This document shows positions 1 through 34,409 of a stretch of DNA of 64,000 bases, piece by piece (the stretch's first letter is position 1; the number at the start of each line of letters is the position of its first letter). The stretch is from positions 121,272,001 through 121,336,000 of the forward strand of contig CM097882.1 of NCBI GenBank assembly GCA_044892505.1. Direction: 5' to 3'. Origin of the DNA: Schmidtea nova (Eukaryota). The position numbers and the translations under genes are program-made. Below the pieces are notes generated by a model. The model was not told where the DNA came from. It did no database searches and saw only the letters and a list, made by a program, of their open reading frames with translations.

Positions 1-3000
1 AATTACAATTTTTTATATTCAAACATTTATTAAATTTCGTCACATTTTCTCAGTTACTAATATCATTTTATTGTTATTTTTTTGTTATTTTTGTTATTAT
101 TTTTTTGTTATTTATTGTTATATTTTTTTTATGTATTTCATTAAAACCACTTCCATACCCCCTGACATCTGTTCTGGCCTTGTGCCGTACGGGTGAAAGT
201 AATCTGAGCGGATCGCTGGTTCGATTCGTAATCGATCAGCCCATTTTTCCGACTTCAGGTGATACGCCAAAACATCCATGACCACTTCATCCCAACTGGG
301 GAACAGTGGTTTGGCCAAGGGCAAGGTTTTTTATTAATGATTGACAATTTATATTAATGTATTTTATCTGAATTATATTTTATAACATATTGTGAAATAA
401 ATAAAAAAAAATCGATACTTCAGCAAAAAACACTAACGTAATACGTCCAGTAATGTCTTTTCCACCATAAAATTTATCAGCACAAAAATATCGAACTCGT
501 TATTCGCTTTCACTCTCATCACAATTGTCATCTTATCAGAATATACAAGTCGAATAAAAGTCAATATTGAAAAGAGAATCGTTCAAAATAATACTCAAAA
601 CCGATAAAAATAATTACTACGAAACGAAATATGAAAACAAGTATTGATTTATTTGAACTGAACCTCCTTGAATGCATAGTTATCGAAATAATTTACTCCA
701 GTGAACCTTGGTTTCGGGAGCCTGAAGTTCTCAAGTGAAGTATCTCGAAAAATTCGCGCGCACTTTGTTCGGGAAATTCACGCTCGAACGAAACAAAAAT
801 TCACCTTACTTGATGTCGAAAGCTATTATGAATTAGAGAGTTGATTTTGAATGATAACCGAACGAAGATACAAAAGCTGAAATCAAAAATTTATTGTGAA
901 AATTACTTTAGATCAGCAGATTTCAATCCTTGTGAAAAATTACTGATCAAGAAGTTTATTATAAAAACATTTGTATGAAAGTGGATAAATTTTATGTTAT
1001 TATTTATCTGAATTTATTTAGGAAAATTTATGAATTATAATTTATTTATTGTGTAAACTTCATGGAAATTACAATTTTTAATTATAAAACCAAAATTTAC
1101 TTTTTAGGAATCATATCATGGAAAAATTTAAAGCAAAAAAACTATTTTTTATTCTCTTTAAAAAGTGAAAAAATTATAAATTAAGTCCTTGTATTAGTTT
1201 GTAAAATTAAAAATTTTTTTATATTAAATTATAAAAGGTATAAATCGAAAATTTTATTGTATTTCATAAAATTAAAATTAAAAAAAAAAATTAGCTAAGA
1301 AGATTTATGGATACTAAAATTGTTACTTTATTGAAAATTTATTTATATTTAATTATATTTAATTAATTTATTAGTTTATAAACAAAACCCCACGATATCA
1401 CAAAATATATAATACACCTATACTTGCAAAGCAATACATCCATACCATTCATTAACACTATCCATACTAATACCACATGCAACATTTATCAAAATACAAT
1501 ACACACACTACTCATTTCAATCAATAGGATCTCGTATACTAGATAATACAATAAACAATATATCCACTCACCAACATACACAACGTGATTTCATCTAACA
1601 GTATCCACTAGCATCATACATCCAGACAATCCCCCCCAGTGTTCATACAATCACATCCATTGTTTATCGCCTATTGCGGTAGTATCATTTACAATATACA
1701 AACACATACGATCACACAGACAGATATCCATAATAGACCTAACATGGTATATATACATACAAACTTGCACTTAGTATGACCACATAATCCACATTCAAAC
1801 CATCCTTCTAAAATTTTAAGCAAACGCGTTGACGTAAATCACCAAACTTATACACAAATTTAATCACAAGCACTATTATAAATTTACGAAAAGAAAAATA
1901 TAAGAGGAGAAAAATTTATTAAATAACAACTTAAACTGAAATAAGAATAAACTAAATATAATGTACTAACGACAGAGATGGTTTGTTTTAGAAGTTTCTT
2001 TTAATTAGATCCAAAAAAGTATAAATTCCAACAGTTATCGTTCGTGGGAAATCTTCTGGGACCGATGTGTAGGATCATTTTCCAAGAAGGAAGTACCGAG
2101 ATCTCGGTGCTGGAGTCTGAGACAGATTGCATCATCATTTGAATATTTGGATCTGAGATATATTTCAGTGGTGTAATCCAGTGGTGTAATCCAAATTATT
2201 TTGAAAAGCCACGAAATGACATTGTTGATTGAATTGAAATTCTATCGCCACTTCTATTAAATGCATTTTGAATTCTCTTCAATTTTTCTTTTGCATAAAA
2301 TTTTCGAACAATATATTTCGAGATCTGCTATCTTTTGGTTGGAGATCTTCACCCTGGTAATTTCCCTCGACTCGTTAACTTGATAGTGAGGCTTAAGTCC
2401 TTAAAATGTTATTATATAAACGAAATAGAATAAATTACCAGTGTATTCAGTTGATTTGAGGGAAATCTCCTTCCTAAAAATAACTATCTGAAATCGATAG
2501 TTATAATATAGAATTTAAATTGCCATAATAGAAATTACCCAATAGGAATTAAGGAATCTTGCTTACCCGTCTATATAAAATTTTTTTCGATCGGGGGAAC
2601 ATGGATATCCTTGACGGGAAGAGGTAGGAATTTTATTCTATAGGTGAGATATAATTTAGGATGCTAAATATTGACAAAAATTTGTAAAAAATCTTAAAAG
2701 ATTTTTTTTAATATAAAGTTAGTAACAAATTATGTAATTACTTGTTGCCGTTGTCAAGGCCTCGGCAAATTTTTGAAAATTCAGAAATTAAAGTTTTAAT
2801 AAAGTTATCATTATAAATATATTTTAAATACAGCAAGATAGACATTATGTATAGGGGATAAGTAAAATTTACTTAAATTTACTGACACAAAAATATACAA
2901 ATTTTAAAAAAAACCTGGAAAATAATAAAGTTTAGTTAAAATCAACAGAAATCAAATACCCCGAATATATGTGTTGATAAAAGATGATTCGATTCCCGAA

Positions 3001-3429
3001 TTGAATTTGCGATGATATGTTTGAGTACGAGCTTACGAATAGAGTAAATGTGCGAAAATTCCCGAGAATTTGGATATATACCATGCATAATGATTGTTTG
3101 GGACAAATTAATATATTTTTATTGATGAAATTATTTCATTTTTGCCAATTTAAAATGGATATCTGTAGTTAATTCATTGAAGAAGGAACAGAATGGACAT
3201 TAAACCTTATATCGGTAGTCCTTGGACCCAGGAGATATTCGGTCAATCATAGTTTCGAAATTTCGACGCTCACTGATTGCGAATATTCACCAGAGGAATC
3301 GAACCCGGTCCAAGGTTAGTTAAGAAAATTCAAGATATCGAGATTCCAAGGAACAAGAAAGAGGTCAAATGTTTCGTTGGGTTAATCAATTATATTGGAC
3401 GATTAATATCCAATTTCTCACAAAATATA

Positions 3430-3916
3430 TCATTCATTTAGTAAAGTAGTAATGGTACATTTGCTAACATTTAACCTTGTCGTCATTTCTCTGGTAGTTA
3501 TTCTGCGTTCCTTTTGCACTAGTTCTTTCAGCTTTTGAGTTATTTCTGAGCTGATTTCAAAAGGCCTTCCAGATCTTTCATCATCCATTACAGACGTCCT
3601 ACCTCTTTGGAATTCATTATACCAACGTTGTATTGTAGCTATGGATGGACAGTCTTCAAAATACTCAGCTTTCATTTCGTTGAATATATCTTCTCTACTT
3701 TTTCGTTGGAGGAATAAAAACCTAATTACTCTCCGATATTGTACAATTTCTAAGGACATTTTCGAAATATTACAATTTAAATCTAAAAAAAATTAAGTAA
3801 AATAAAACAAACATTATTGAAGAAACCCATACATTGCGTAGTTTTTAAATTCAAAAATTTGTAGAGTTTAAAGTTGTTTTTCTTTGTAAGGCTCATGACT
3901 TATCGGACACCACGCA
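3430..3916 (-). mobile_element. Tc1/mariner transposon 5' fragment (left end plus N-terminal HTH region of transposase), 3'-truncated
   Basis: ORF 3430-3759 (YRRVIRFLFLQ...PSIATIQRWYNEFQRGRTSVMDDERSGRP) matches the mariner paired-like HTH pattern. The upstream end reads TA|TGCGTGGTGTCCGATAAGT, which is mariner TIR-like. No DD34D region follows. Confidence 0.85.
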
Positions 3917-3979
3917 TATATTATTATTATTGTATATATATTCTTATATATATTATTCTTATATATATATTCTTCATTT

Positions 3980-4135
3980 CTAATAAATGAATGTTAATAT
4001 TGTCCCGAATCTGGAGATAAATGCTTCTGGAGGATCGCTGAAAGCTTGTATCATTGATGTTTTAATTTCTTCATAACTAATATCTTCGTTTTTCGCTGCT
4101 TCCTTCAAAGTGATGAATGCCTTTCCTATCATGAC
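3980..4135 (-). pseudogene. 3' half of a gag-like relic ORF split by the Polinton-like insertion
   Basis: Joining this to 15469-15606 across one CATGAC copy gives a continuous 95-aa frame: MIKDILSAIKCFDGENMKIDEWFDKFELIYKLHKFNGKKEILPAVM|IGKAFITLKEAAKNEDISYEEIKTSMIQAFSD..., resembling a retrotransposon Gag N-terminus. Confidence 0.65.
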
Positions 4136-4809
4136 AGTAGAGTAGGGGGAGCGCCCAGAAACAGGAACTGCCCCCCCATAAAAAATTTTACCCCCCCTTA
4201 AAAAATTTTTTTAACTCCCCCTGTTCTTGTTTTTAATTTTTATTAAAATTTTTGTTTAAATGAAGTGAATTTCTTTTTATTTTTTATTTTGTTTAAATGA
4301 AGTCTTTTTATTTCTTTTTCTTTTCTTTTATTTTCTTTTTAATTTATTTATTTTAATTTAATTTTAATTTATTTTTTTTTAATTTATTTATTTTTATTTT
4401 GTTGGGCCCGCCAAATAGGCTAAAACAACAACAATAAAACAAAAAGTTAAAATAATAATAAAATAATAAACACAGAAATAGCAATAAAGAAAAAATTAAA
4501 AATAGAAATAAAATAGTAAATAATATTTAATAAATTTCCAGCAAAAGGAAATTTTAAAAATAAAACGGAAATAAGCAGTAAGGGGGGCCTGAATAGAGAA
4601 AATTAGAAATTAAATAAAATAATAGTGCAAGTAATTAATTAATTATTTGAAAAACCAGGACCACCCAGCGAGAAACCGGAAAAGGAAGTAAATAATATTT
4701 AGATTTAAAAAAAATAGTAAAAACACTTTGATGGACGGTCTGATCCTGATTGGTCAATCTGACCAGCAGGATCAGTATAAATACCGATCCGAAAATCATA
4801 ACTTAACTG

Positions 4810-5064
4810 TTAACTTTTATAAAAACACACTTTTACACTTTTGAATTTTTGAAAGTTTGAAGATACTTTTAATCTACGCAAGATATTTTCTAAACCATTA
4901 TTGTAAAAACTTGAATCTACCCTCGGAGAAACTACGAAGTAAATTTTGTTTATTGTATCATTGTTGATTTTGTACCCGGATTTCATTATTAAATTATTTA
5001 AATGTTGAATTTTGTTTTTTATAATTTTAACCATGCATATAGACATGCTTCCTTGGCTGCTCAC
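4810..5064 (-). CDS. Hypothetical small ORF inside the Polinton-like element
   Basis: 84-aa ORF from the track with a non-ATG start; no recognisable motif. Confidence 0.2.
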   Translation of the reverse strand: MSSQGSMSICMVKIIKNKIQHLNNLIMKSGYKINNDTINKIYFVVSPRVDSSFYNNGLENILRRLKVSSNFQKFKSVKVCFYKS

Positions 5065-5824
5065 GCGGCAAGGGAGCCCGAGTCGTCGTTGTGGGGCTTC
5101 ACGGTCTCACATGGCGGTTCCACCTTTTTCTGTTTTAATATTTTAGATTATTCTGACAATGTCAATTTATAAATCTGCGTTTAAAATTTTTTAGCATTTA
5201 AGGTTGCACAATGGATGAGTTGCCTAAATGTGAAGGGAATAATGCAGGGGGCTGCCTGATGGCAAGGGACATCTCCCAGGTACCAGATACCTTTTTCCCC
5301 AATGTGTGATCGGAATGTATGAGTTACCGTTCCAAGAAAGAGATGTGAATAAAATTTACTAGTAAAAAAAGCGCATCGACAATATACCCAGAGATAAACA
5401 AATTCAAATAGGGCAAAGTACGTCTAACTAGTCGAACGAATTGAATGCGAAAACTTATGAGTTTTTAGGATAATAGACTATTCACCTAATTTCAGTGTTG
5501 AGGGTAGAGATCGATCGTACACACCCACTGATCCGTGATACAGAGGCCAGATCGCATCAGACAACGTTGGAATGTGATTAAATTCGAGTAAAATAGCATT
5601 ATCTTGATCGCTGTAAATAGCGCAAGAATTCCCCAATAATTTGAGAATTTAAATTTCATAGTTACCCTGATCGCTGTATATAGCGCAGGGCCAAGTGACG
5701 AATATTGTATTCCGACCGTGGTACATCACGGCGAAGATAATTTGAATAATTAAAGATTTAACATATTTTCTTTTGCATTAAATAAATAATATCTATGATA
5801 AGTTAACAAGTTCAAATAGCACAG

Positions 5825-6232
5825 ATGACAATAACCAATATAAATCATAAGCTAACCGAACTCAGGAATTCGGTGGAGACGATCAATGAAAAGGAAACGT
5901 CTGCCATATTCAAGGAGCTTCCACCTCGGATTTTGCGCACCATCAACGCGCAAGTTTACAAATGGCGCCGAGGGTTTAATCGGAGATGTCCATTCTCCAT
6001 TTGGGCGGACAAGAGAGATCATATATTCTACCGGGGCGGACCGGATTGGCCAATTTCGAGAAAGCCCTATTCAAAGAGATTTGGACAGATGGTCATCTTG
6101 ATAAATGATGTAGAAGGACGACCGAATCAGATAATCTACTGGGGACACATCCCACGAAAGGAATTGCGCAAATTAGGACTGCAAGCGTTCATACCGCGGA
6201 AATCTTTCGGAAGAGAATGCAATGATGGATAA
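5825..6232 (+). CDS. Hypothetical 135-aa protein inside the Polinton-like element
   Basis: ATG-initiated, protein-like composition, higher GC than the flanks. It overlaps the ATG of a following ~55-aa hydrophobic-tailed ORF (MMDNLHFHG...IIVLIFCLCCILF). Confidence 0.4.
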   Translation: MTITNINHKLTELRNSVETINEKETSAIFKELPPRILRTINAQVYKWRRGFNRRCPFSIWADKRDHIFYRGGPDWPISRKPYSKRFGQMVILINDVEGRPNQIIYWGHIPRKELRKLGLQAFIPRKSFGRECNDG

Positions 6233-7329
6233 TCTCCATTTTCATGGGCCAGGCTTCGAAGAATACCGATTAATCATGAATTGCACATCCTATTCCGACG
6301 ACCTTAACTCTGACGATTTAATAATAATAAATAGCTTAATAAAGATCATAGTGTTGATATTCTGTCTTTGTTGTATTTTGTTCTGACAATAATTAGTTAA
6401 TTTTAGTAATTCTAAATAATACTTTAACGTAAGAGTAGTCTTCGCCCAAAATTTGCAAAGTCAGGTAGACCGGCTTCACAAACTATCCGAGGAGGAATTA
6501 TTAAATGAAGTGTTCCCCCCAGAAGAAATTTTTAGCAGCTTAATAGAAAAATAAATGAAATGTTGAAATGTTGTCGTTTTTGCTATTTCTTAAATTAGTT
6601 GAATAACAAAAATAAAGTAGATAAATAATTATAAGGGCAAAAAATTAGAAAACTTCACGCGAATTTTATATATAGTAAAGGAATGAAATAAACATAATAA
6701 AGATCAATTCTCCAGATTTTATGTGAATTAAATAGCATACCATTAAAGCGTAAGTCCTTCTAACGGCAGCAATGAACCCGTAAACATAAATGGGGAGTAG
6801 TACTAGCAATAGTGCTCACCTGCCCATCATTGTTTAACCACCCTGCGCATCACCAACTTGATTATCCAGGGAAATAATCAAGGGCGCTTGAGTGTAAAAT
6901 CGCACATTTTATGTATGATCATGGATGAGGGATCCCTAGTCATGGTTAGAACATTTTTCATCTAACCCCTCCATGAACCCAGCAATTTTATNNNNNNNNN
7001 NNNNNNNNNNNNNNNNNNNNNNNNNNNNNNNNNNNNNNNNNNNNNNNNNNNNNNNNNNNNNNNNNNNNNNNNNNNNNNNNNNNNNNNNNNNNNNNNNNNN
7101 NNNNNNNNNNNNNNNNNNNNNNNNNTTAATTTATTTTTACTTAATTTATTTTTATTTTAATTTATTTTAAATTAATTTATTTTTATTTAATTTTATTTTA
7201 TTTTAATTTATTTATTTTAATTTTATATTAATTTATTAATTTTTTTAATTTATTTTATTTTAATTTATTTATTAATTTAATTTAATTTATTTTAATTAAT
7301 TTATTTTAATTTAATTTATTTTAATGTAT

Positions 7330-9505
7330 TTTTTGTACAGAATTTTTGATCTGGTTATTTTGTAAAGGATTTTCTACTCCTAGATTTTCTAGGGCAAAAA
7401 GGGACTCTGGGTTTTTTGTACAGGAATTTTTGAATTGGATTTTTGATCTGGATTTTTGAATACAATATTTTGGTCTGGTATTTTTGGATAGGATTTTCAA
7501 CTCCGAGATTTTCTCGGGCAAAAAGGGACTCTACAGGAAATTTTTATACATGAATTTTTGGTCTGGCATTTTTGTATAGGATTTTGGTCTGGTTATTTTG
7601 AATAGGATTTTCAACTCTCAGATTTTTCTCAGGCAAAAAGGGACTCTGGTATTTTGAACTGAAATTTTAATGGTAAATAAAAAACACGTATAAATTTTAA
7701 AACTAGTAAAATACATTGAAATTATTTTGAATAGGATTTTCAACTCCCATATTTTTCTAGGGCAAAAATAGACTCTGGTAATTTTGAACTGAAATTTTAA
7801 TGGTAAATAAAAAACACGTGAAAATTTTTTAAACAAGTAAATTATCTTTAAAGTATTTTGTATAGGATTTTCTACTCCCAGATATTTTCTAGGGCAAAAA
7901 TAGACTCTGGTAATTTTGAACTGAAATATATATTTTAATGGTAAATAAAAAACACGTGCATATTTTTCAAACTAGTAAAATACATTGAAATTATTTTGAA
8001 TAGGATTTTCAATTCCAACAATTTTCTCGGGCAAAAAGAGACTCTGGTAATTTTGAAATATGATTTTTGGTCTCGTATTTTTGTATAGGATTTTTAGTCT
8101 GGTATTTTTGAAAATAATATTTTGGTCGGTGAAAATCAAAAAATTAAAAAGTGGTCAGAATTCAATAATTTTTATATCAATCTACTGAGAATTGAAAGGC
8201 AAATAAAAATGGTCAAAAATTAAAAAACATGAAAAATTGATCTCATCCGACCAATTTTTACATGTAAAAAGGGTCAACTCGGAGAATTTCCAAAAATCAA
8301 AAATGCTCAGAATTCAAAAATTTTTATACCAACCTACTGAGAATTGAAAGGCAAACAAAAAAGGGTCAAAAAGTAAAACCTGAAAATTTTGACTTATCCG
8401 ACCCAATTTTTGACGTAAAAATGGTCGACTCGGGGAAATTCCAAAAAATCAAAAAGGCTCAGAATCAAATAATTTTTATACCAATCTATTGAGAATCGAA
8501 TGGCAAACAAAAAAGGGTCAAAAAGTAAAAACATGAAAATTTTGACTTATCCGACCAATTTTTACACGTAAAAAGGGTCATAAATAAAAAAATTAAAAAG
8601 TGGACAGAATTCAATAATTTTTATACCAATCTACTGAGAATTGAAAGGCGAACAATAAAGGTTAAAAAATTAAAATCATGAAAAAATCAAAATTTTATAC
8701 GGGAAATGTCAGTCTCAGTAAAAATAGGTAAAATACTTAAAAACGTGGAAATATTTAAAAAAAAATTTTTTTTTAACTAAATAATTAAATCTAAATAAAT
8801 TTATGATAATTAAATAAAAAAGTAAATAATTACTATACGAATTTCAAAACTCAGTAAATAATTCACTCATTATTTTGTATTGAATTTATCAAGTAAAATA
8901 AAAAGTAAATTAAAGTTAGAATTTTAAAATAATTTGTACTGGATTTTTGAAAAATGGTAAAGTAAATAAATTAAAGATAGAATTTTAAAAATAATTATGA
9001 ATTTAAGGACAAATAGAATTATAAGTAAATTAAGAATAAAAAAAAAGTAAATTAAGAAAGACGTGTGTTTTAATGTCATAATTTTAAAATGAATTGGTTT
9101 CAAATGAACTTTTAAAGGTAATATTTGAAAAAATGTGAGAATATTTAATTATTTTTTAAATTTTTTAAAGTAAAATTTTTTAACAATAAAGTCAATGTAG
9201 AATTTTTTAACAATAAAATCAATGTAAAATTTTTTAATTAATAAATACAAAGTAAATATTTTTTCACAAGTAAATATTTTTCACAAGTAAAATTTTTAAC
9301 TAATAAATACAAATCTAATTGTTTTTCAATATGATGTTTTTTAAGGAAATGATCAAATAACAACAAATTAATGTAGTAAATAAAACACATGTAAATATTG
9401 AATTTACTTAGAATAAAAATAGTTATTAAACAAGAGTTGTTACAATTTTGTATACTAAGTTAAAAAATATCGATTAATGACATAAAGTTTTAAAAATAAA
9501 CGTAA
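7330..9505 (+). repeat. Left arm of a ~2.2-kb internal inverted repeat with modular ~120-bp subrepeats
   Basis: Reverse complement of ~12770-14960. Mirror ORFs 7618-7836(-) and 14444-14662(+) differ by one residue. Subrepeats GGGCAAAAAGGGACTCTGG and AAAAGGGTCAAAAAGTAAAA recur. Confidence 0.9.
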
Positions 9506-9679
9506 TAATTNNNNNNNNNNNNNNNNNNNNNNNNNNNNNNNNNNNNNNNNNNNNNNNNNNNNNNNNNNNNNNNNNNNNNNNNNNNNNNNNNNNNNNNNNN
9601 NNNNNNNNNNNNNNNNNNNNNNNNNNNNNNNNNNNNNNNNNNNNNNNNNNNNNNNNNNNNNNNNNNNNNNNNNNNNNNN

Positions 9680-10980
9680 CTAAGTACCAACAATAAACCG
9701 ATCAACTAACTAATAATTTCATTACACACAGAAATCAACCACTGACTAGTAACTGATCAAATGCTAACTGACTCTATCCACAAATCAACAATCGACTAGT
9801 TACTTTCCAGTTACCAACTGACTCTATGTATTAACCAACTAGGAAATTGTTCCATGTGGCAATCTCTTCCTATTAACTATATATCAATTAATCCAATCCC
9901 ATTAGTTAACAAATAGTACAATTCCTTACTTACTAACTTTATCTATACTAACCAACTAGCTAACTATACATACTAACCAGCAACCAATACCTTACTAACC
10001 AACATGAACCAACAAATTCTATTAATTAATCTTGTACCAACCAACCAACTACATTAACCAACTAACTAACTAAACACTAACTATCAACCAATTCCTTACT
10101 TCCCAACTAACTCTTCTCATTAACCAACTAGTTCTATTCATTAATCCTATACTAACCAACCAGCCACTCACTCTTTACACACTAACCAGTATTCAATTCC
10201 TTACTAACCAACTAGTTCTATACATCAACCAACTAACTCTTCACATTAACCAAGTAACTTTATTCACAAATCACCAACCAACTAACTAACTATACATACT
10301 AACCAGCAACCACTTCCTTACTAACCAACTAGTTATATACATCAACTAACTAGTTCTATCCATTAATATTATACCTATCAGTCTACCAACCAACCAACTA
10401 ACTAACTATACATACTAACCATCAATCAATTCCTTACTAACCAACTAGTTATATACATCAATCAACTAGTTCTATACATTAATCTTATACCTATCAATCT
10501 ACCAACCAACTACACTAACCAACTAACTAGCTATACATACTAACCAGCAACTAATCTCTTACTTACTAACTAGTTCTATACATCAACCAACTAGTTCTAT
10601 TCATTATTCTTGTACCAACCAACCAACTACATTAACCAACTAACTAACTAAACACTCTAACTATCAACCAATTCCTTACTTCCCAACTAATTCTTCTCAT
10701 TAACCAACTAGTTCTATTCATTAATCCTATACTAACCAACCTGCCACTCACTCTACACACTATTCATCCAAGTACTTACCAACTACTTCTATACATTAAC
10801 CAACTAGTTCTATACATTAACCAACTAGTTCTATACATTAACCAACTAACTCTATTCATAAATCAACAACAGACTAGTTAATTATTAAATATCAATTGAT
10901 TCTATCCACAATCTACTAGTTAAATCAACTAATCGGATACCAACTGACTCTATATATTAAACAAATAAATCTTCACTCTA
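9680..10980. repeat. Degenerate (ACCA/ACTA)-rich, G-poor minisatellite
   Basis: Repeated AACCAACTAACT and ACTAGTTCTAT motifs; a ~150-bp block at ~10025-10175 recurs at ~10605-10755. Confidence 0.85.
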
Positions 10981-11689
10981 AGGAAATTGTTCCACGTATC
11001 AATTAACTCTTCGCATTAACTAGATATGATATTTAAAACTAACTGATTCTAAATGTCGTGTCATAAAATTAAATTTATTACTTTGAATAATTGAATTAAT
11101 CTTTAGTTGATTATCAGTTTTTAAAAAGGTATACTAATATCTACGTTGTTAAAATGAAATATTTTATTAATTAAAGTTCTTTAAATTTTGAATATATTTA
11201 AAATGCAAATGACTTTTAATACAAAGCTCTATTGAAATCATTGTTCATCTAATTCTTCACTTGATAACTAACATTAAAAATTAATTTAAAAACCATTAGA
11301 AAAACCCTGTTAACTATGTAATTCTATTAAAATGATAAGATACGCAACTAATGAAATATTTCTTGATACTTCTTATTACATGTTCAAATTATTTCTTCAC
11401 TCCGTTAATTTAAAGGATTAAATAAATAAATATTCAATTAATTTGAATTTAACTTTAGAATGTTATTACAAAAATAAATATATACAATTTAAAAGATACG
11501 TACATTTTCATTTCTATTCTTCTTGGATATATTTTCTTGTGTAAAATAATTATTCATGTTTTCTTCATTAAAATAGTTAATCATATTTTCTTGCATAAAT
11601 TCTTTGTTGATTGTCAATAAATTCTAAAAAATAATAAAAATTAATTCAAAAATTTCAATACAAATATTTATTTATTAAACATTTTTTAA

Positions 11690-11875
11690 CCACTCTAAAC
11701 TGTGCTACCACGTGTAACATTTTTGTCATCGGATTCTGGTATCAGATTCTGTTATATTCAATTCACATCAGCATTGACGATACCTTTTTCAACATTGTAG
11801 GCGGATAATAAAATCCCATTGGATCAAACATGCGTATTTTATTGGGTTTCACATAAATTGCAATCATGAAAATAT
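11690..11875 (-). pseudogene. Decayed adenain-like (Polinton PRO) cysteine protease relic
   Basis: Across frameshifts it reads (H)-IAIYVKPNKYA / MFDPMGFYYPP / IEYNRI*YQNP / VT(R)G. This resembles the HW.AIY...FDS.G..P...YN..YQ....CG pattern of Polinton proteases. Confidence 0.5.
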
Positions 11876-11889
11876 AATTTTAATCTTAT

Positions 11890-12340
11890 GCAGGTAAAAA
11901 CCATCACAAAAGAGGTTCTGATACAAAATAATCTGCTACTTGATAAAAAATGATGAAAATTCAAAAATATTGGTATATAAGTGAATATACAGTATGAAGC
12001 TTTTACAGGTAAAAACCATCACAAAAGAGGTTCTGCTACTAAAGGTTCTGTTACTAAATGTTCTGCTACTAGATAAAAATGATGAAAATTCAAAAATATT
12101 GGTATATGAGTGAAAATATATAGTATGAAGCTTTTACAGGTAAAATCCATCACAAAAGATGTTCTGATACTAAAGGTTCTGCTACTAAATGTTCTGCTAC
12201 GGGATAAAAAATGATGAAAATTCAAAAGAAAATATTGGTATATGAGTGAAAATATATAGTATGAAGCTTTTACAGGTAAAAACCATCACAAAAGAGGTTC
12301 TGCTACTAAAGGTTCTGCTAGGAAGGTTCTGCTAGTAGAA
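11890..12340. repeat. Tandem repeat, about 4 units of 113-135 bp containing a 15-bp subrepeat GGTTCTGCTACTAAA
   Basis: The unit start CAGGTAAAA(A)CCATCACAAAAGA recurs near 11891, 12005, 12137 and 12272. Confidence 0.85.
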
Positions 12341-12769
12341 AATAGACTGAAAAATTGTCTAAATGGGTGAAAATATTAATTAGCTTTGAAGTGTTAAAAC
12401 AGAATGGTTCTCGTCTACTTTTCAACGGATTTTCTCAATAGATTAATCACTTCAATTGGCCATCCCAGTTTCAACTTCTTTTTAGTGAAATTTGAATAAA
12501 TTTACCCTTTGTGTATTTTCAACTAAAGAACCTATCAATTTGAATATTTTCCTTGATAAATACATCATTCGAATGAATGTTCCATCATTTTTATTTTCAT
12601 CTTTAAAAGCTTTTCAAGTTACTGAGTACTATGAATTTTAGGAATTTTCATCTTTTTATGTTATTTCTTAGCTGAATTTATTTATTGTAATTACCAATTG
12701 AATTTTCTCCAATTATTGAACCTTTTTCAGTGGAATTCTCATTAAAGCTTTTACAATTCTAAATTTATA

Positions 12770-14960
12770 AGTTTATTTTTAAAAATTTATGTCATTAATC
12801 GATATTTTTTAACTTAGTATACAAAAATTGTAACAACTCTTGTTTAATAACTATTTTTATTCTAAATAAATTTAATATTTACATGTGTTTTATTTACTAA
12901 ATTTATTTGTTGTTATTTGATCATTTCCTTAAAAAACATCATATTGAAAAACAATTAGATTTATATTTATTAGTTAAAAATTTTACTTGTGAAAAATATT
13001 TACTTTGTATCTATTAATTAAAAAATTTTACATTGATTTTATTGTTAAAAAATTCTACATTGACTTTATTGTTAAAACTTTTTACTTTAAAAAATTTTAA
13101 AAATAATTAATTATTCTCACATTTTTTCAAATATTACCTTAAAAAGTTCATTTGAAACCAATTCATTTTAAAATTATGACATTAAAACACACGTATTTCT
13201 TAATTTACTTTTTTTTATTCTTAATTTACTTATAATTCTATTTATCATTAAATTCATAATTATTTTTAAAATTCTATCTTTAATTTATTTACTTTACCAT
13301 TTTTCATAAATCCAGTACAAATTATTTTAAAATTCTAACTTTAATTTACTTATTATTTCCATGCTTTTATTTAATGTACTATTTTACTTGATAAATTCAA
13401 TACAAAATAATGAGTGAATTATTTACTGAGTTTTGAAATTCGTATAGTAATTATTTACTTTTTTATTTAATTATCATAAATTTATTTAGATTTAATTATT
13501 TAGTTAAAAAAAAATTTTTTTTTAAATATTTCCACGTTTTTAAGTATTTTACCTATTTTTACTGAGACTGACATTTCCCGTATAAAATTTTGATTTTTTC
13601 ATGATTTTAATTTTTTAACCTTTATTGTTCGCCTTTCAATTCTCAGTAGATTGGTATAAAAATTATTGAATTCTGTCCACTTTTTAATTTTTTTATTTAT
13701 GACCCTTTTTACGTGTAAAAATTGGTCGGATAAGTCAAAATTTTCATGTTTTTACTTTTTGACCCTTTTTTGTTTGCCATTCGATTCTCAATAGATTGGT
13801 ATAAAAATTATTTGATTCTGAGCCTTTTTGATTTTTTGGAATTTCCCCGAGTCGACCATTTTTACGTCAAAAATTGGGTCGGATAAGTCAAAATTTTCAG
13901 GTTTTACTTTTTGACCCTTTTTTGTTTGCCTTTCAATTCTCAGTAGGTTTGTATAAAAATTTTTGAATTCTGAGCATTTTTGATTTTTGGAAATTCTCCG
14001 AGTTGACCCTTTTTACATGTAAAAATTGGTCGGGTGAGATCAATTTTTCATGTTTTTTAATTTTTGACCATTTTTGTTTGCCTTTCAATTCTCAGTAGAT
14101 TGATATAAAAATTATTGAATTCTGACCACTTTTTAATTTTTTGATTTTCACCGACCAAAATATTATTTTCAAAAATACCAGACTAAAAATCCTATACAAA
14201 AATACGAGACCAAAAATCATATTTCAAAATTACCAGAGTCTCTTTTTGCCCGAGAAAATTGTTGGAATTGAAAATCCTATTCAAAATAATTTCAATGTAT
14301 TTTACTAGTTTCAAAAATATGCACGTGTTTTTTATTTACCATTAAAATATATATTTCAGTTCAAAATTACCAGAGTCTATTTTTGCCCTAGAAAATATCT
14401 GGGAGTAGAAAATCCTATACAAAATACTTTAAAGATAATTTACTTGTTTAAAAAATTTTCACGTGTTTTTTATTTACCATTAAAATTTCAGTTAAAAATT
14501 ACCAGAGTCTATTTTTGCCCTAGAAAAATATGGGAGTTGAAAATCCTATTCAAAATAATTTCAATGTATTTTACTAGTTTTAAAATTTATACGTGTTTTT
14601 TATTTACCATTAAAATTTCAGTTCAAAATACCAGAGTCCCTTTTTGCCTGAGAAAAATCTGAGAGTTGAAAATCCTATTCAAAATAACCAGACCAAAATC
14701 CTATACAAAAATGCCAGACCAAAAATTCATGTATAAAAATTTCCTGTAGAGTCCCTTTTTGCCCGAGAAAATCTCGGAGTTGAAAATCCTATACAAAATA
14801 ATAGGACTAAAAATCCTATACAAAAATACCAGACCAAAATATTGTATTCAAAAATCCAGATCAAAAAACCCAGAGTCCCTTTTTGCCCTAGAAAATCTCG
14901 GAGTAGAAAATCCTATACAAAATAACCAGAGTAAAAATCATTTACAAAATAACCAGATCA
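12770..14960 (-). repeat. Right arm of the ~2.2-kb internal inverted repeat
   Basis: Reverse complement of 7330-9505; mirror coordinates sum to ~22280. Confidence 0.9.
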
Positions 14961-15468
14961 NNNNNNNNNNNNNNNNNNNNNNNNNNNNNNNNNNNNNNNN
15001 NNNNNNNNNNNNNNNNNNNNNNNNNNNNNNNNNNNNNNNNNNNNNNNNNNNNNNNNNNNNNNNNNNNNNNNNNNNNNNNNNNNNNNNNNNNNNNNNNNNN
15101 NNNNNNNNNNNNNNTAAATTAATATAAAGATAAATTAATAAAATAATTAAAATAAATTAANNNNNNNNNNNNNNNNNNNNNNNNNNNNNNNNNNNNNNNN
15201 NNNNNNNNNNNNNNNNNNNNNNNNNNNNNNNNNNNNNNNNNNNNNNNNNNNNNNNNNNNNNNNNNNNNNNNNNNNNNNNNNNNNNNNNNNNNNNNNNNNN
15301 NNNNNNNTAAAAAGACTTTATTTAAACAAAATAAAAAATAAATTCACTTCATTTAAACAAAAATTTTAATAAAAAAACAAGAACAGGGGGGTTAAAAAAA
15401 TTTAGGGGAGGTAAAAAATTTTTTTAGGGGGGTCTGTTCGTGTTTCTGGGCGCTCCCCCTACTCTACT

Positions 15469-15606
15469 CATGACAGCAGGTAAAATTTCCTTTTTTCCAT
15501 TGAACTTGTGAAGCTTGTAAATTAATTCAAACTTATCGAACCATTCATCGATTTTCATATTTTCACCGTCAAAACATTTTATTGCACTTAATATATCTTT
15601 TATCAT
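15469..15606 (-). pseudogene. 5' half of the gag-like relic split by the Polinton-like element
   Basis: MIKDILSAIKCFDGENMKIDEWFDKFE...LPAVM continues in frame at 4129 after removing the insertion and one TSD. Confidence 0.65.
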
Positions 15607-17379
15607 GCCCGAATAGCTTGTGTGATAATAAGATAATTCAAATATTTATTCATTCAATAAATCTACTTATTTAAACAACTTTCTTTGCTTTTAAAAATTA
15701 TTATTTTAAATTAATTATTCTTAATACATCTCCCCGAGATTCTGACAAATCTTCATTCCTGTGTGCCAATATAGGTAATAAATTTTTATGCAAATTATTC
15801 TAGATGTATTTTATGGTGTAGACAATGTTATTGACTGAAACGATTAATTTGATTGCAAACGTGGATGCATGGATCAATTCTTATTTTTAGAAGAGGTTTT
15901 TATGAAAAAATATACATAATAAGATTCCAGAGTTTTTATATGAAGATGAATTTTACAAAATAACCATTATAAAATTAAATTTACAATTTCTATATCAATT
16001 TCTGTAGGTTTTGGAATTTAAGCTAACTTAAGGTGTAAACAATTTTTTAGAAATGTAATTTCATGATAACGGAATTTTATATTTTATTTAGAAATTTCAA
16101 ATAAAATTGATTCCTATTTAAATTAAAAATTTTCGGGTAGGTTATATTTCAAAATTTTGCAAATATTCTGCATGTAAAATAAGAGATATCTAAATTTAAG
16201 ATAACCCTTAGTAGCCTGATTTACGAAAGTGATTTTTTTTTAATATTATTGTGTTTGCTTGAGGGCACATATGTCATAGATAAAATAAAACAATAATGAC
16301 ATTTATTTTTTTTTTAATTTCGTTGGAAAGAATATTATACAACAGTAAAATACGAACAGCCAATCTATAAAAAAACTAATAGTAATGTGAACATTAGGTT
16401 TAAAAGATTGGTATCAAAATTGAAACTCTAGGTTATTAAGGGTTAAGAATCTGGTTTTTTAATAAATAGTTTTTCAAATTAAATTTTACTCTAACTACAT
16501 TTTATGTGAAAAATAAAACGAAGAATTATTTTTTCTTTATTCTTTTGAATCGTTTTTATATAAGATAAATTATAACTAAGTTTTAGGTTAATTAAATAAG
16601 TCTGGTTTTACACAGGTCATTTTCCCAATTTAACAGAATCAAAATAAATTTTATATCGACTGAACATAGGTATTGTTTTCTATTCTCAGGTTAAATTGAT
16701 AGAAAATAATTATGATTTTTATTAAGTAAGCGATTCCGATTTACGAGCTGGGTTCGCGATACGACGAGAGTGACTTAGAGATTAATTTCTTATTAAGGCG
16801 AAGTTGAGTTTTTATACGAACTATGGCGATTTATATACGGGCAGTTTATTTTCCGATAGCTGCTGATTGACTATAGTTTTAAGTAAGTGTGAGAGTCAAC
16901 TAGATCTATAGAAATACAAATAATTACTATACTATAACAAAGATATTAGAATTTTCATCCTTTGAAACTTGACAATTAATTTGTGAGTTACTAAATGATT
17001 CCATAAAATTTATTTCTACAAAATTATTAAAAACTTAAACTGGTTTTAATTTGTTATGCTATTCAAACAAATTTATAATCTTCATTTTTTATTTAAACTT
17101 TTTCAATTTAAACTTTTAAATTTAAAATCTTTTCTAAATTTTCAATTTCACATTTTCAATATTTTGTAACGAATAACTTAAAAAATTTTTAGAATCTCCC
17201 AGCTTCTTTAGAAATTTTTAAAGTTTTTCCACGTTTCTTTCGATTTTTTACCATTCTCGTTTTTCAAGATTTCGTCTGTCATGCACTTGCTCGATCACTT
17301 TGTGTGTCCCCTCATATCTATCCTGGTTTTTATTGCGTGTTTCTAATTTTACTAACACGTCTTCCCCAACATTGAATTT

Positions 17380-17880
17380 CCTCCTTGTTTGTTCTTCGAG
17401 TTCTTTTTTTACTTGTTTCTCTTTGGACTCTTACCATTTTTCCTTGCTAATCTTTTTTTTCCAAAAACTATCTATGTCTGGCTTTTTCCTGTCGATTTTT
17501 GTTTGGTTGCATTTATTGTGAATTCGACTTCTGGGAGAATCTCTGTCCAATCAGTCTTCTTTCTGTCATGTAAAGTAACATTTATCAGTTCTCGAATTGT
17601 CCTGAATTGTCTTTCTATCTGTCAATTTGTTTGGTGATGGTATGAACTCGAAAAACATTACTTAATATTTAGATTCCTTGTGAATTCTATCAAGATTCCT
17701 GATTCAAACGCCTTCCCGCAATTAACTCTTATCTCCTTTGGGCAATCAAATCTTAAAATCGATTTTTCGAGAATCGTTTTCTTTATCATTTCTTCGTCTT
17801 GTCTTGTTATGGCTGTCAAGACTTGATGCTTACTAAACTAGTCTTTTATGCCCAATAAATATTTTTTATATCCAATCAAC
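17380..17880 (-). pseudogene. Decayed gypsy integrase fragment
   Basis: The minus strand reads, with stops, ...SSYHHQTN*QIERQFRTIRELINVTLHDRKKTDWTEILPEVEFTINAT..., closely resembling the integrase at 57350-57800. Confidence 0.7.
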
Positions 17881-18074
17881 TCTTCTGTTAGTATATGGCT
17901 CCAACCAACTCTTCTACTGGGGAAGCCCAGTTGTTTGGGAACGGCTTACTAAATTTATCTTCATTTTTCTTTACACACGATTCCCTTTCCTCTTCTTCCT
18001 CGATTCCATTAATCCGACTGTATTTGTTTCCTGTCGGTCATTGGTTCTCTATCGATTTCTTGTAACCCAATTAA

Positions 18075-19237
18075 ATGGCATCGAACCAACCAAACCCAAA
18101 CACTTCACAAACACCCATGGACAACGAAAATGCACAATCCCAACACCAAAACAACAATTATTATTACAACCCCGAAAACACACACACCATAAATTCGGTA
18201 ATTAACCCGAAACCCAACCTACCAAACTACTTCACTGACGAAAATGGCACTCCACAAAAATGGCTGGAATTTGCCAAATTAACACTAACAGTTTCAGGTA
18301 TAAAATCCACAAAACCGTATGCTCCAATATTATAGCCGCATTCCCAAGCAACAAACTAAATGAAATAGCGGATCAGATCGAAGAAATTTTTAAGGATGAC
18401 GACCCCTTTAACAAACTGTGTAACATCCTTACGTACAAAAATAAAATAAACAGGAGACAAATGCTAGAGTCATGCCTCAATAACACGCAACTAGGCGACA
18501 ACAAACCAACAGATTTTCTCCGACAACTCAAGCAAAAACTGGAATACCTCAAACCCAACATCACAAATTCAGGCTCCAACGAATTGGTGAAAGAATTTTT
18601 CATGCGAGCAATGCCACCAGAAATCAGGAGGATTCTGGCTGCCAGCAACAACGTTGATGTTGAAACGCTTGCCGATATAGCGAATAAAATCAACGAGGAA
18701 ATTTATCCGACTATATGCAGCACCCAAATCCACAACAAAAACAAAACTAACTACAATAACCCTTCATACAACAAAAATAACTAACAAAACGAAAACATGA
18801 ACAACCTACTAAACACTCTTATCGGCAAATTCGACGAAATAATTGTCGAAAACAAACAAATTAAAACAGAACTAGCCGAAATAAAAGAACGCTGTAATAA
18901 ACAGAACTTTAACTCAACGCAATCATACGATAATTACAACAGATACAACCACAGCAGAGACCAAACATCCAACGGTCAAAACAGACAATGCTACAATCAA
19001 CCCCCAGAATACAACAGACAAAACTACAGCCGCAGTCTATCACCAAACAACAATTACAGAAATCGGTCAAACTCCCCAAATCGAGGCAGCAATTACAGTA
19101 CCAAAAGTCCTGAAAGAGACCCAAGGAATAATTATATAAACAAAAGCCTCTGCTATTTCCACAACAAATTCGGTGAAAAGGCATTTAAATGCACACAACC
19201 CTGCGATTTCAATAAAACAGAGCAGGGAAACCAATAA
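18075..19237 (+). pseudogene. gag: gypsy gag, broken into three ORFs
   Basis: ORFs 18075-18335, 18260-18784 and 18797-19237; ELVKEFFMRAMPPEIRRIL motif and a C-terminal zinc-knuckle-like motif. Confidence 0.8.
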
Positions 19238-19245
19238 GGTCACAA

Positions 19246-21997
19246 ATGATAGCACCCACATCAGGTGACAAAAATAACACATTTTGGGTGCACAGCAATA
19301 ACATAGACTTTTTAATAGATACCGGCTCGGTGATCTCACTACTGCCCCATTTTATGTATAAAAGTGCCAACAAAACAGAAAAACCATTAACAGCAGCTAA
19401 CGGCACAAACATAAAAACTTTCGGGCAACAAAAAATAAATTTAAACATAAATAAAAAGAACTACAACTGGACATTCACCATAGCTGAGGTCCAACAAGCA
19501 ATAATAGGAGCAGATTTCCTAACAAATTACAACCTCCTAGTGGATTGTAAAAACAAACAAATAATAGAAAATATTACTTATACTACAATACCACAGTACA
19601 ACACAAGCAACGGAGGAAAACCAAAAATAGACATCGGTGTTATCCAAACGGGTTCACCTAACAATAAACAAAAACAAAAATTAATTATAAAATAAACTAC
19701 TGAGAAAATTCGAAAAACTAACCGAACTAGTAACCTTCGACAAAAACGCGGATCATTGCACCGAACATGCAATCATAACAAACGGAAACCCAGTTCATGC
19801 AAAGCTGAGACAACTAGATCCACAAAAAACAAAAATTACGAACGAAATTTTCAAGGAGTTACTAGAAAACAAAATAGTAACTCACTCGAACTCTAATTGG
19901 TCCTCAGCACTCATGCTCAAACAAAAGGCAAACGGGGAATGGAGAGCTTGTGGCGACTACCGAATGCTCAACAAAATCACGGAACCAGACAACTACCCGT
20001 TGCCTATCATCAGAGACATAATAAACAGATTAAAAGGAGCAAAACTCTTCTCGAAAATAGATTTACAGAAGGCTTACCACCATATACCTATCAGGAACGA
20101 AGACATTAAAAAACAGCAATCCTAACACCAATCGGCATGTTCGAGTACAACAGAATGCCATTTGGTTTGCGAAACGCAGCTGCAACATTTCAACGATTTA
20201 TGGACAAGACTTTGAAAAATAACCAGAACACAATAGCTTATTTGGACGACATCCTCATAGCAAGTCCAAGCAAAACAATTCATTTTAAAGACATTGAAAA
20301 GGTGTTTGAAACGCTGGACTCAGCAAACCTCAAAATAAACATTCAAAAATGCGAATTCTTGAAAAAAGAAATAAATTTTCTGGGACACACACTGGACGAA
20401 AAAGGCACGAAGCCAATAGACAAGAAAATAAGCACGATACAAGAGTTCAAATTACCGAACACAAACAGAGAGTTAAGACGATTTTAGGGAATGGTAAACT
20501 TTTACCATGCGTACATCCCTAACTGCAGTGAATTGTTAGCTCCACTAAACGACCTGATCAAAACAAGAAGAAATATTAAAATAAACTGGACCGAACAAAC
20601 AACTAAACAGTTTGAAAAAGCAAAAACAAGCCTATCTCAAGCAACATTACTCGGATATCCAAATCCAGAACTAGACTACAACCTAGCAACAGACTGCTCC
20701 GGATATGCAATGGGCGCAACCTTATACCAAGATAACGAACACGGCAAACAGCCAATCGGGTTTTTCTCAAAAAAACTAAAAACACATCAAACACGGTCAA
20801 ACTTTGGTAAGATGTCAGCAATGAAAACACACCAAGAATACTCTTACCAAAAGAGTTTAGGAAATTGTGTATTTCGAAAATACATGACATCAGCCATCCA
20901 GGAAACAAAGCCACCTTCGAAATAATCCACAACAGATACATATGGCCAAATATGAGAAAGAAAATCAAAAGTTTCGTAAAAACATGCAAAAAGTGCCAAA
21001 TCAACAAAATATCAAAGAAACAACAACACAAAAAGTAAACTTTCCAAGCAGCCAACCTTTCGAGATGATTCACATTGACATAGTAGGACCGTTACCACCA
21101 AACAACGGGTACAACTACCTACTCACAATCATCGACAGAAAAACAAACTGGTTCGAAATTGTCCCACTAAAAGAAATATCCGCTCAGAACATATGTAAAA
21201 AGATTGAGCTAAATTGGATAGCTCGCTACGGTCAACCAAAAGTATTGATAACAGACCAAGGGAGACAGTTCGAATCAGAATTATTCAGTACTCTGTGCAA
21301 TAAATACAACATAAAAAGAAACCGCGCAACCGCTTACAACCCTCAAGCAAACGGAAAAATCGAGAGATTGCACAGAACACTAAAGGAAAGTATCAGAACT
21401 AAAGCAGACGACAGGAATTGGCTAAGTCAACTCCCGACAATCTTACTGGGACTAAGAAACACACCAAACTCAATCGAAAATGAAAGCCCAGCATACAAAG
21501 TATTCGGCAGACAATCAAATCTCCCAACAATTAAAAACAATACAGGAAAAAACGCAGAAACCAACAAACAAACAACCAACACAAACAACGAAAGAGTAGA
21601 AAAGAAATTAAAAGGAATCCTAAAAAAGAGAGCGAACTCTGAAATGGACGGAAAAGTAGTTCTAACGACAGACTACGTATTAATCAAAAAGCCCTTCACC
21701 AAAGGTTTCGAACCAAAATATGAAGGCCCATTCAGATTGCTAGAAATTAATAAAAATGTTGCAACAATAATAAAAGACAACATCAAAATAAGAATCAATC
21801 TAAGACGGATAAAACCGTATCACAATAATCAAAACACTTCAAACGACCCCACAAAAGAAAAAGCCTCGACACAAACAAAAACACAAACAAAACATAAACA
21901 CATCACATTCAACTACAAAAATTCAATAAAATTATTCGACAAGGACTCAATAATCACACCTCTATACAAAAAACGCTACAGCGATTGCCTCAAGTAA
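19246..21997 (+). pseudogene. pol: gypsy pol (PR-RT-partial RH-IN) with frameshifts and an RH/IN deletion
   Basis: Domain motifs appear in gypsy order in ORFs 19246-19695, 19913-20125, 20137-20487, 20491-20925 and 20942-21997. Confidence 0.9.
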
Positions 21998-26000: not shown

Positions 26001-27811
26001 ATCGCTCGCTCTCAAATCAATGGAATTCAGTTTTTACCCAACATTATTATAAACCTTTAATATTGACAAATCGTCACTTTCCTTGTTTTTATTATACGGA
26101 ATACAAAAAGAATGCCCTTTTTGTCTAAGTCGTGTGGTCACAAAGTTACCGAGTTGCTCAAAAAATTGGATTGCATTACGTTTCAAGAACTTCGTATAAT
26201 ACCTGTCGACCTGAACGTGATCCCAAATATTTATTTTCATTTTCCTTCTTTGACTATAAATCTGAAAATTTTGGAGTTCGACATACATTTGTAATCGTAA
26301 CTTTTACCCTCACTTGGAGTTGGAAATATTCCTTCACTCTTTCTTGTCAATTTTATATGGACTGGATTGAAATTATAATAATCAAAACCTACTTTAAAAT
26401 AATTGAAAAATCAAAATCAAAATCTGCGTTTTACGTCAACTTGTTAATTAAAGCAACAAATATAAATTATTGTAAAACTATATTTTTAAAAAACCTTTCA
26501 ATCCGAATGCATTGTTAGCTATTCCATATAATCTAATGAAAAAGAAATTTTTTTAGATAAATTATGGAATTTTTGTCAAATGGAATTTTGGTAAAATGAT
26601 TAGCAATTCCACCAGTTAGATGAAAGGAATTTCCATGTGTTTAAGAACAGATTTAGTCTCGTTTCAAAAATGCGAATGTTATACGTGATTGGTTAGGAGT
26701 GAGCCGGTAGCCGTTTGGCATGTGAATAGGAGACTCCCATCAAAACTACAATCCGCCTGATCATAGGCCTTTTGCTGATCAAAATAAATGCATAATTTAT
26801 CCAAGTGCCAGCCATTACAGCAACATATAAACAAGTCAATTTTTTTTATAAATTATTGTATAAATCTAAATCAAGTCAAGCGGAAATGCGGGATCTTTAA
26901 ATAGGAATTCTATCATATCCTTTGACTTAAGGAGCCATTATTTAATGACAAGATGATAAAATGGGAGACCGGTGGAGAGTCATGACAACAACTTTATCTA
27001 GATTATAATTAGTATTTAAGAGATAAGATGACATTATCTGCGGATCTGAAATACTGGTGATGGGATTAGGGGAACTAGATTACTGTGTTGACGGATACAA
27101 TCACGCTTTAGGTTATTAATTATATTATTTGATTGATGCCTCAGNNNNNNNNNNNNNNNNNNNNNNNNNNNNNNNNNNNNNNNNNNNNNNNNNNNNNNNN
27201 NNNNNNNNNNNNNNNNNNNNNNNNNNNNNNNNNNNNNNNNNNNNNNNNNNNNNNNNNNNNNNNNNNNNNNNNNNNNNNNNNNNNNNNNNNNNNNNNNNNN
27301 NNNNNNNNNNNNNNNNNNNNNNNNNNNNNNNNNNNNNNNNNNNNNNNNNNNNNNNNNNNNNNNNNNNNNNNTAGATAAAGATGAGGCTAGATGAGATTAT
27401 AGAAAAGATAATTTATGAATATCAATGAATGAAAGGGTCAGCAATCTAAATTCGAGAGACGATAAACACTTTATTAAAGAAATCCATGAAAGAGCGGTTG
27501 AAAGTGGATTGTGAAGTGTATCCATGTCAAGGTAGCAATTTATAAATCTGTCACACTTGACCGAGTGTCAGTAATTGGGGGTACCATATAAATTAATAAA
27601 TGGAATCCAAAGTCACCCCCGAAGCTAACAGCCAATTGAATATATTTCTAAGGCCGAATCGAATAGAAACGGCCATGACAAATGAAAACACTCGGTTCAA
27701 AATGATAAAAATGGATAAAAATGATTGGTGAAAATGTCAATAAAAATAAATGAATGAAATATTCTGAAAATATCACATTGACGTATAATTGGAATTGGAA
27801 GTTTGTTTTAA

Positions 27812-29639: not shown

Positions 29640-30293
29640 AAAAGTAATAATAATTATTATTATTATCATTATATTATTATTTTTATTATTATTATTATTA
29701 TTATCATAATTATCTTTAAGTTTCACCTTAGATCTTTTTTTATTATTAATATCAATAATTCCTATAATGGATGACTATAGATCAAAATTTCTTTTAATAA
29801 GTACACAATATTTCGGTTGTGCCATTATGGGANNNNNNNNNNNNNNNNNNNNNNNNNNNNNNNNNNNNNNNNNNNNNNNNNNNNNNNNNNNNNNNNNNNN
29901 NNNNNNNNNNNNNNNNNNNNNNNNNNNNNNNNNNNNNNNNNNNNNNNNNNNNNNNNNNNNNNNNNNNNNNNNNNNNNNNNNNNNNNNNNNNNNNNNNNNN
30001 NNNNNNNNNNNNNNNNNNNNNNNNNNNNNNNNNNNNNNNNNNNNNNNNNNNNNNNNNNNNNNNNNNNNNNNNNNNNNNNNNNNNNNNNNNNNNNNNNNAC
30101 TATAGATCAAAATTTTTTTTTTATAAACAATAACACACGATTTCGGCACAGCCTTTATCAAGTGTGTATTTCATTTATACACACTTGATAAAGGCTGTGC
30201 CGAAATATTGTGTTATTGTTTATAAAAAAAAATTTTTTGATCTATAGTCATTATGAGAATTATTGATAATAATAATAAAAAAAGATCAAAGGT
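29640..30293. mobile_element. Cluster of Penelope-like pLTR copies, including a head-to-head palindromic pair
   Basis: Copies of the same pLTR sequence as 37020-37190: a diverged minus copy at ~29700-29830, a minus copy at 30100-30169 and a plus copy at 30178-30293, each bounded by N runs. Confidence 0.85.
30133..30213. ncRNA. Two divergently oriented minimal hammerhead-like motifs (30133-30167 minus; 30181-30213 plus)
   Basis: ACAC-TTGATAA-A-GGCTGTGCC-GAAA-(TATT or TC)-GTGT. Confidence 0.6.
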
Positions 30294-34315: not shown

Positions 34316-34409
34316 GTATTTCTATCGTTATATTTACTTAATCCTAAATAGTAGCCTTAATTATTTTTTTAATATTTTATAATGATTTTATTGGATGAAA
34401 AAATTTATT

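Follow-up and report, generated by a model that had tools for sequence, protein, structure and literature searches.

How an insertion with the ends of a Polinton (Maverick) and almost none of its genes came to lie in the genome of Schmidtea nova is the question raised by positions 4130-15474 of a 64,000-nucleotide stretch of that genome (assembly GCA_044892505.1, contig CM097882.1, positions 121,272,001 to 121,336,000 of the forward strand). This whole stretch is referred to below as the window, and all coordinates are positions within it. The original prediction, made from the sequence alone, described an 11.3-kb non-coding insertion mobilised by a Polinton integrase. The analysis below indicates that the element very probably descends from a Polinton. 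As assembled, it is best read as a non-autonomous deletion derivative that was moved in trans after its genes had been lost, a reading that we hold as probable.

The ends of the element were located by terminal repeat and duplication. The 23-bp terminus AGTAGAGTAGGGGGAGCGCCCAG is present at 4136-4158 (+) and, inverted, at 15446-15468 (-). It matches nowhere else in the window, even with 3 mismatches allowed, and none of 100 shuffles contained any match. The two ends share their first 28 bases and differ at the base immediately outside, which fixes the boundary of the insertion exactly. The terminal repeat was aligned over ~185 bp with 153 matches, 5 substitutions and 6 gap openings, after which the right copy enters a run of N. 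The left terminal part of the inverted repeat, which starts AGTAGAGTAG, spans 4136-4320 (+) and the right terminal part 15308-15468 (-). The sequence CATGAC flanks both ends as an exact 6-bp target site duplication (TSD) at 4130-4135 and 15469-15474; among lengths of 3-11 bp only 6 matched, and a random 6-mer would match with a chance of 7e-4. The inverted termini and the TSD were thereby recovered as originally described. With AG...CT termini and an AGT-type start the ends are of Polinton type, the motif being inexact.

The insertion interrupts a minus-strand reading frame, which is open for 59 codons on the right flank (15469-15645) and, in phase, for 49 codons followed by a stop on the left flank (3980-4129). 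Random pairs of positions in the window equalled this result in 4.1-5.9% of 200,000 trials, so the in-phase frame supports the pairing of the ends only modestly. Taken together, the termini, the TSD and the in-phase frame identify the two ends as those of one insertion. The open reading frame (ORF) that had been predicted to be restored by excision is thus open and in phase across the flanks; the empty site itself is a reconstruction from those flanks. No Pfam family was matched by the interrupted frame above cut-off (best E 0.12), neither half matched anything in the PDB, and no other gag in the window was matched. The right half, the upstream part of a putative retrotransposon gag, scored 0.92 in the Atlas to unnamed clusters and to DUF4939, a level attained by 4-10 of every 100 shuffled proteins according to the tool's own note, and 0.88 to DUF7041. 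Both DUF4939 and DUF7041 are presumably Gag-related. The label 'gag-like' is accordingly best treated as a lead and not a result. To the left of the insertion, 3300-3980 consists of nested debris with a mariner N-terminal helix-turn-helix (HTH) piece at 3430-3792 (-) and a reverse transcriptase (RT)-like stretch at ~3300-3430 (+), recognised by eye and oriented opposite to the putative gag.

Polinton origin is supported by the interior as well as by the ends, as the core holds the decayed remnant of an adenain-type cysteine protease that had earlier been overlooked. The remnant lies at 11718-11864 (-), corresponds to positions 51-99 of a 115-position profile and carries two in-frame stops (11763-11765 and 11742-11744). 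Similarity breaks off just short of 11864 and again after 11718. No trace of the N-terminal (upstream) half, which carries the catalytic His, was detected, and a 136-bp tandem array (11867-12340, ∼3.2 copies) that abuts the upstream end of the remnant occupies its place. Direct searches of Pfam, PHROGs, the PDB and a word index all missed the remnant, which was found by exhaustive phmmer alone. The minus-strand frame 11693-11870 (59 residues, with X at the stops) was compared with 1.84 billion proteins and gave 10 matches at E<=0.001, the best with E 1.8e-9 and 53% identity. Eight of the 10 align as one family of short proteins, the protease; the other two, a TPR and a WD40 repeat protein, were dropped. 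Pfam Peptidase_C5 (adenovirus endoprotease) was matched by 6 of the 10, 2 of them above cut-off.

A profile search for this family recovered 312 relatives among 943 candidates. In 113 new relatives the His-aromatic pair is conserved in 113/113, D[PS]xG in 109/113 and Gln...Cys-Gly in 113/113. Against the profile of these 113 the remnant scored 40.9 bits; the next best site in the window reached -3.8, and 139 random 150-bp pieces no more than 8.3. The set was reached via the remnant itself, which leaves this test short of full independence. A profile of 98 of the 113, omitting two short sequences and the last 13, was compared with structures and matched adenovirus protease (1avp) with E 1.8e-7 and African swine fever virus S273R with E 2.8e-4. 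The same profile aligned to the remnant by hhalign with a probability of 99 and E 2e-18. Two further candidate pieces of protease were rejected. The 136-bp array scored -0.7 to 1.2 bits against a null maximum of 8.3, which does not support an origin by amplification of an N-terminal protease piece, and a C-terminal protease-like motif in the neighbouring frame 11675-11707 reached 1.7 bits and was not counted.

The remaining Polinton genes were sought by six-frame Pfam scans of 4400/4700-6990, 7331-9510, 9680-10900 and 10850-12800. No relevant match to pPolB, integrase, ATPase or capsid was obtained, and no long ORF for a Polinton core gene is present in the element. The scanned sequence thus agrees with the earlier statement that polymerase, integrase and capsid genes are missing; the right arm (a mirror of the left), the ends and 604 N lay outside the scans, and heavily decayed genes could escape Pfam, which also missed the protease remnant directly. 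Of the features of an autonomous Polinton the element retains the 6-bp TSD, the AG...CT inverted-repeat ends and, as a broken remnant only, the protease. The retroviral-like integrase, packaging ATPase and jelly-roll capsid genes were not found. Since the core genes were not detected, the element was classed as a derivative and not as a full Polinton. Ends and TSD have been kept, the enzymes have been lost and the interior is of Polinton origin, as in a non-autonomous Polinton derivative.

Descent from a Polinton was assigned because the TSD, the AG..CT ends and the protease fit, the termini of other superfamilies differ, and Polinton-like viruses (PLVs) and Tlr1 are without the protease. IS3EU/GingerRoot elements share the 6-bp TSD, but have TA..TA (sometimes TG..CA) termini where those here are AG..CT. 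The TGTNR termini and 4-5-bp TSD of Ginger1/Ginger2 were not matched either (termini and TSD lengths of both groups as given in the accessible parts of PMC10045372 and PMC2836005). PLVs and Tlr1 are defined by lacking a maturation protease, according to the portion of PMC5499653 available, and a protease remnant is present here.

The interior of the element is assembled as five contigs separated by four N gaps (604 N in total), so the length of 11.3 kb is a scaffold estimate. Self-comparison of the window revealed an internal inverted duplication of 2.2 kb, absent from the earlier description of the interior. The left arm, 7331-9510 (+), is mirrored at 12762-14949 with 95.5% identity (2113 matches, 45 substitutions, 52 gap columns), and the right arm as a whole spans 12762-14960 (-). 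Within 7600-8799 only 5 substitutions separate the left arm from its mirror copy. The arms are built from 27-, 114/138- and 152-bp tandem arrays, which in the left arm are followed by AT-rich DNA up to the N gap at 9511-9679. The contig after that gap does not mirror 12300-12800, which places the inner end of the left arm within the gap. The core from 9680 also contains a 117-bp/21-bp tandem array at 9943-10885.

The spacing between termini and arms was compared on the two sides. On the right it is ~360 bp, across two N gaps and a 46-bp TTAAT-type contig (15115-15160, -) that belongs to the spacer of the right inverted repeat. On the left an AT-rich array appears twice, as a T-rich/TTAAT-like first part of the spacer at 4321-4399 (+) and as a TTAAT array of 1% GC at 7126-7330 (+) that follows the N gap 6992-7125 and forms the rest of the spacer. 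The segment 4400-6991 sits between the two, and with this segment set aside the left spacing becomes ~285-420 bp. On the simplest reading of this arrangement there is probably one tandem-array-built inverted repeat of ~2.7 kb at each end around a 3.1-kb core (9680-12761). From the asymmetry of the two sides, 4400 to at least 6991 is probably a further element inserted into the left repeat within its AT-rich spacer, and the core element would be ~8.7 kb without it. The originally proposed 11.3-kb insertion thus has real ends, and its length is a scaffold estimate of which at least 2.6 kb probably belongs to a separate insertion nested within it. 'Non-coding' overstated the case for the interior, which holds the decayed protease at 11718-11864 and a 134-codon ORF at 5828-6232.

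The putative nested segment begins with a 712-bp long terminal repeat (LTR)-like stretch at 4400-5111 (+), with TGT...ACA ends, TATAAA at 4776 and ATTAAA at 4988. Its ACA at 5109-5111 directly abuts a primer binding site (PBS)-like 13-mer (5112-5124, +) that matches the complement of the tRNA-Gln 3' end at 12/13 positions and is the only site in the window with <=1 mismatch to this primer (primer sequence from the accessible part of PMC7744096). Two adjacent GC-rich hairpins at 5047-5120 have a folding energy of -40.1 kcal/mol (z -3.0); 1/200 shuffles was equally stable and no Rfam match was found. An LTR followed by a primer binding site is the standard layout of an LTR element. Several observations weigh against such an element here. 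The PBS-like motif has one mismatch and doubles as the 3' arm of a stable local hairpin. The window holds no second copy of 4400-5111 and so one LTR only, and the 134-N gap is too small for a second. No TSD or gag/pol of the segment itself was seen before it ends at the N gap. The 134-codon ORF of the probable nested insertion (5828-6232, +) found no relative among 15 candidates, no usable Atlas match and no Pfam or significant PHROG match, and its single-sequence model folded poorly (predicted local distance difference test score, pLDDT, 45.9). The odds that 4400-6991 is an LTR-type element are placed a little above even. It was most likely inserted after the Polinton-derived element, because the right repeat shows no room for such a segment.

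Movement without genes was assessed from relative timing. The 5 substitutions in 158 aligned positions of the terminal repeats were halved to give a per-copy divergence of 1.6%. In the protease frame 5.4% of point changes make a stop, and two stops in 49 codons would then arise with P 0.0075 at 1.6% divergence and 0.025 at 3%. Decay of the protease therefore probably predates the insertion. The two protease stops, set against a difference of 2-3% between the ends, suggest that the element moved after gene loss, i.e. in trans. Mobilisation in trans, in line with the original proposal, is on this timing the likeliest reading, and one that we infer.

The proposed course of events is as follows. 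The element would have kept its cis-acting ends (5'-AG...CT-3' on ~2.7-kb inverted repeats) and a 3.1-kb core with a broken protease. An intact Polinton with related ends may have supplied the protein-primed polymerase, which, from what is understood of Polinton biology, would start at the termini. On the same grounds the retroviral-like integrase of this helper would have made the staggered cut that gave the 6-bp duplication. Integration would have landed in the frame of a decayed, putative LTR-retrotransposon gag, and an LTR-like element would later have entered the left repeat at its AT-rich spacer. To our knowledge, the mechanism of Polinton movement has never been shown directly.

Several observations count against movement in trans of a Polinton derivative, and three other explanations were weighed beside it. 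Collapsed assembly copies or gene conversion may have inflated the identity of the arms, which weakens the timing. On the first of these other explanations, an autonomous Polinton could have inserted intact and lost most of its interior in place, never moving in a gene-less state. Only one copy is in view within the window, where a single pair of termini was found (0 further copies in GTDB, a prokaryotic set and uninformative here), and repeat-rich interiors may be easily deleted. Among vertebrate Maverick loci 96% are degraded fossils, in the available text of PMC8097293. Decay in place is nevertheless unlikely, as a protease with 2 stops and loss of frame at both ends stands beside a perfect TSD, termini that differ by ~3% and only 5 substitutions in 1,200 bp of the central arm. 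The assembly itself is a further concern. In a scaffold of five contigs and four gaps, contigs from the interior of a repeat family may be put in the wrong place and gaps given the wrong size. A true pair of ends might then enclose a composite of different family members, and the real element might be larger, possibly with genes. The contig 7126-9510 consists entirely of repeats and has a gap on either side, and the LTR-like segment without a partner LTR suggests that at least 1 gap is underestimated. Yet a single ungapped contig (9680-14960) holds both the right arm and the protease remnant, and the orientation of the arms and their spacing to the termini fit one symmetric element; a composite interior is thus improbable.

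The attribution to Polintons has weak points of its own. The end motif AGTAGA matches (AGT)2 at 5/6 positions, none of the 120 protease relatives listed of the 312 bears an informative name, and a GTDB profile scan for such relatives in a Polinton locus gave 15 pattern matches with 0 confirmed, again in a prokaryotic set. The term 'Polinton protease' therefore rests on the family and its context. A foldback-type element of another superfamily (IS3EU/GingerRoot or Galileo/FB) that captured a fragment of a Polinton protease would account for some of the same features. Galileo and Foldback elements have other termini and TSDs longer than 6 bp, and foldback elements are also mobilised by Mutator-type transposases. 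The AG..CT termini here are neither TA..TA nor TG..CA, and three independent Polinton traits coincide in one element. In favour of a foldback element are the 6-bp TSDs of IS3EU/GingerRoot and the resemblance to Galileo/Foldback, whose inverted arms are likewise long and internally repetitive and enclose a short core. These elements are mobilised by a P-type transposase (abstract of PMC3573991), Polintons by an integrase plus a polymerase. This explanation is considered very improbable. Gene loss followed by movement in trans remains the reading adopted here.

Other features of the window were also recorded. Its base composition is AT-rich, with 10 N gaps, and it is crowded with eukaryotic transposable elements: Ty3/Gypsy pol pieces, Penelope-type RT with GIY-YIG, the mariner HTH and a BEL/Pao-type gag. 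The region 3000-17000 gave no Rfam match at E<=0.1, and no tRNA was found by ARAGORN. A Ty3/Gypsy element at 17837-21997 (+) is split into several ORFs with protease, RT, RNase H and integrase (Pfam), and window self-comparison showed no LTR pair for it. A Penelope-type element at 34210-37976 carries an RT ORF (34843-37062, -) and two GIY-YIG ORFs (34410-34916, -, and 37203-37814, +), the second of which belongs to a ~0.8-kb inverted duplication (94%); related short stretches are present at 29699-30293. Self-comparison also detected near-perfect palindromes at 30099-30248 (151 bp), 30701-30775 (75 bp) and 34791-34853 (63 bp), some of which adjoin N gaps. The ORFs 28041-28619 (-, 192 codons) and 26129-26518 (+, 129 codons) had no Pfam match.

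A complete 8.7-kb LTR element at 47513-56196 (-) sits within a Gypsy RT gene. It has 2566-bp LTRs of 100% identity with TG..CA ends, a 5-bp TSD (CTAAG), an initiator-Met-type primer site and a polypurine tract. Its single ORF of 1578 codons (50167-54903) starts within an LTR and is a fusion of FHA, an HSP90 piece, ubiquitin, a BEL/Pao gag (DUF1759) and a coiled-coil-like tail; no pol domain was found by Pfam, and the LTRs hold NOP5NT/Nop fragments. This element looks like a young non-autonomous BEL/Pao derivative that has captured several host genes.

The Polinton derivative was compared with described systems, for which general background was drawn from the accessible part of PMC6431247. Mavericks are described in the available text of PMC8097293 as encoding a protein-primed polymerase, retroviral-like integrase, adenovirus-like protease, ATPase and capsids, with terminal inverted repeats (TIRs), 6-bp TSDs and (AGT)2 or (AG)3 end motifs. 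The element shares with these vertebrate Polintons/Mavericks the 6-bp TSD, AG..CT termini, AGT-type start, inverted repeats and adenovirus-like protease (here a remnant); it differs in that no pPolB, integrase, ATPase or capsid was detected and in its motif, which is AGTAGA and not exactly (AGT)2. The inferred ~2.7-kb repeat is longer than the TIRs of 46-1,447 bp given there for vertebrates. Reduced elements are reported in the portions available of other studies: TIR-bearing Polinton remnants in C. elegans (10.1101/2024.01.15.575659) and fragmented Mavericks in the Hessian fly (PMC8504770), while anole Polintons show no non-autonomous copies according to the accessible text of PMC3014272. Butterfly polintons have ∼2-kb TIRs, and some that lack polB carry long interspersed nuclear element (LINE) or Gypsy cargo and are seemingly still mobile (10.1101/2025.02.07.637071, available in part). 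The likeness lies in the very long TIRs, the loss of polB with apparent continued mobility and a retroelement, here a putative one, nested inside. The butterfly TIRs, however, encode hexon and adenain and most genes are kept, whereas the arms here are non-coding tandem arrays, only a broken piece of protease is left and the nested element is present in one arm only. No description of this element was found in the literature searched, which left out most subscription papers and Repbase, and absence from print is not claimed. Repbase includes non-autonomous Polintons, such as the zebrafish Polinton-N families, with Polinton ends and TSD and without the enzymes.

Degraded Polintons, Polintons with long TIRs and seemingly mobile Polintons that have lost genes are thus already known, and this element is one more example. 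The near-total loss of genes, together with arms that are by our reconstruction non-coding and ~2.7 kb long, is somewhat unusual. Coming from a single locus in a gapped assembly, the finding mainly adds to a known category. The tandem-array inverted repeats would account for over 60% of the core element. A more tentative view, which we would put at rather less than even, takes the locus for one member of a family of foldback-shaped Polinton satellites that have almost no genes and were mobile until recently. A helper Polinton would have copied and integrated them in trans, long after their genes had died, and they could carry retroelements as cargo. Annotation pipelines would overlook a Polinton derivative with 2.7-kb arms built from repeats, or file it wrongly as satellite or foldback DNA. 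Copies that lack genes and still transpose serve as natural deletion experiments, implying that the ends alone are needed and that an active helper is present in the genome. If true, a satellite family almost free of genes would show the least that Polinton replication and integration require in cis.

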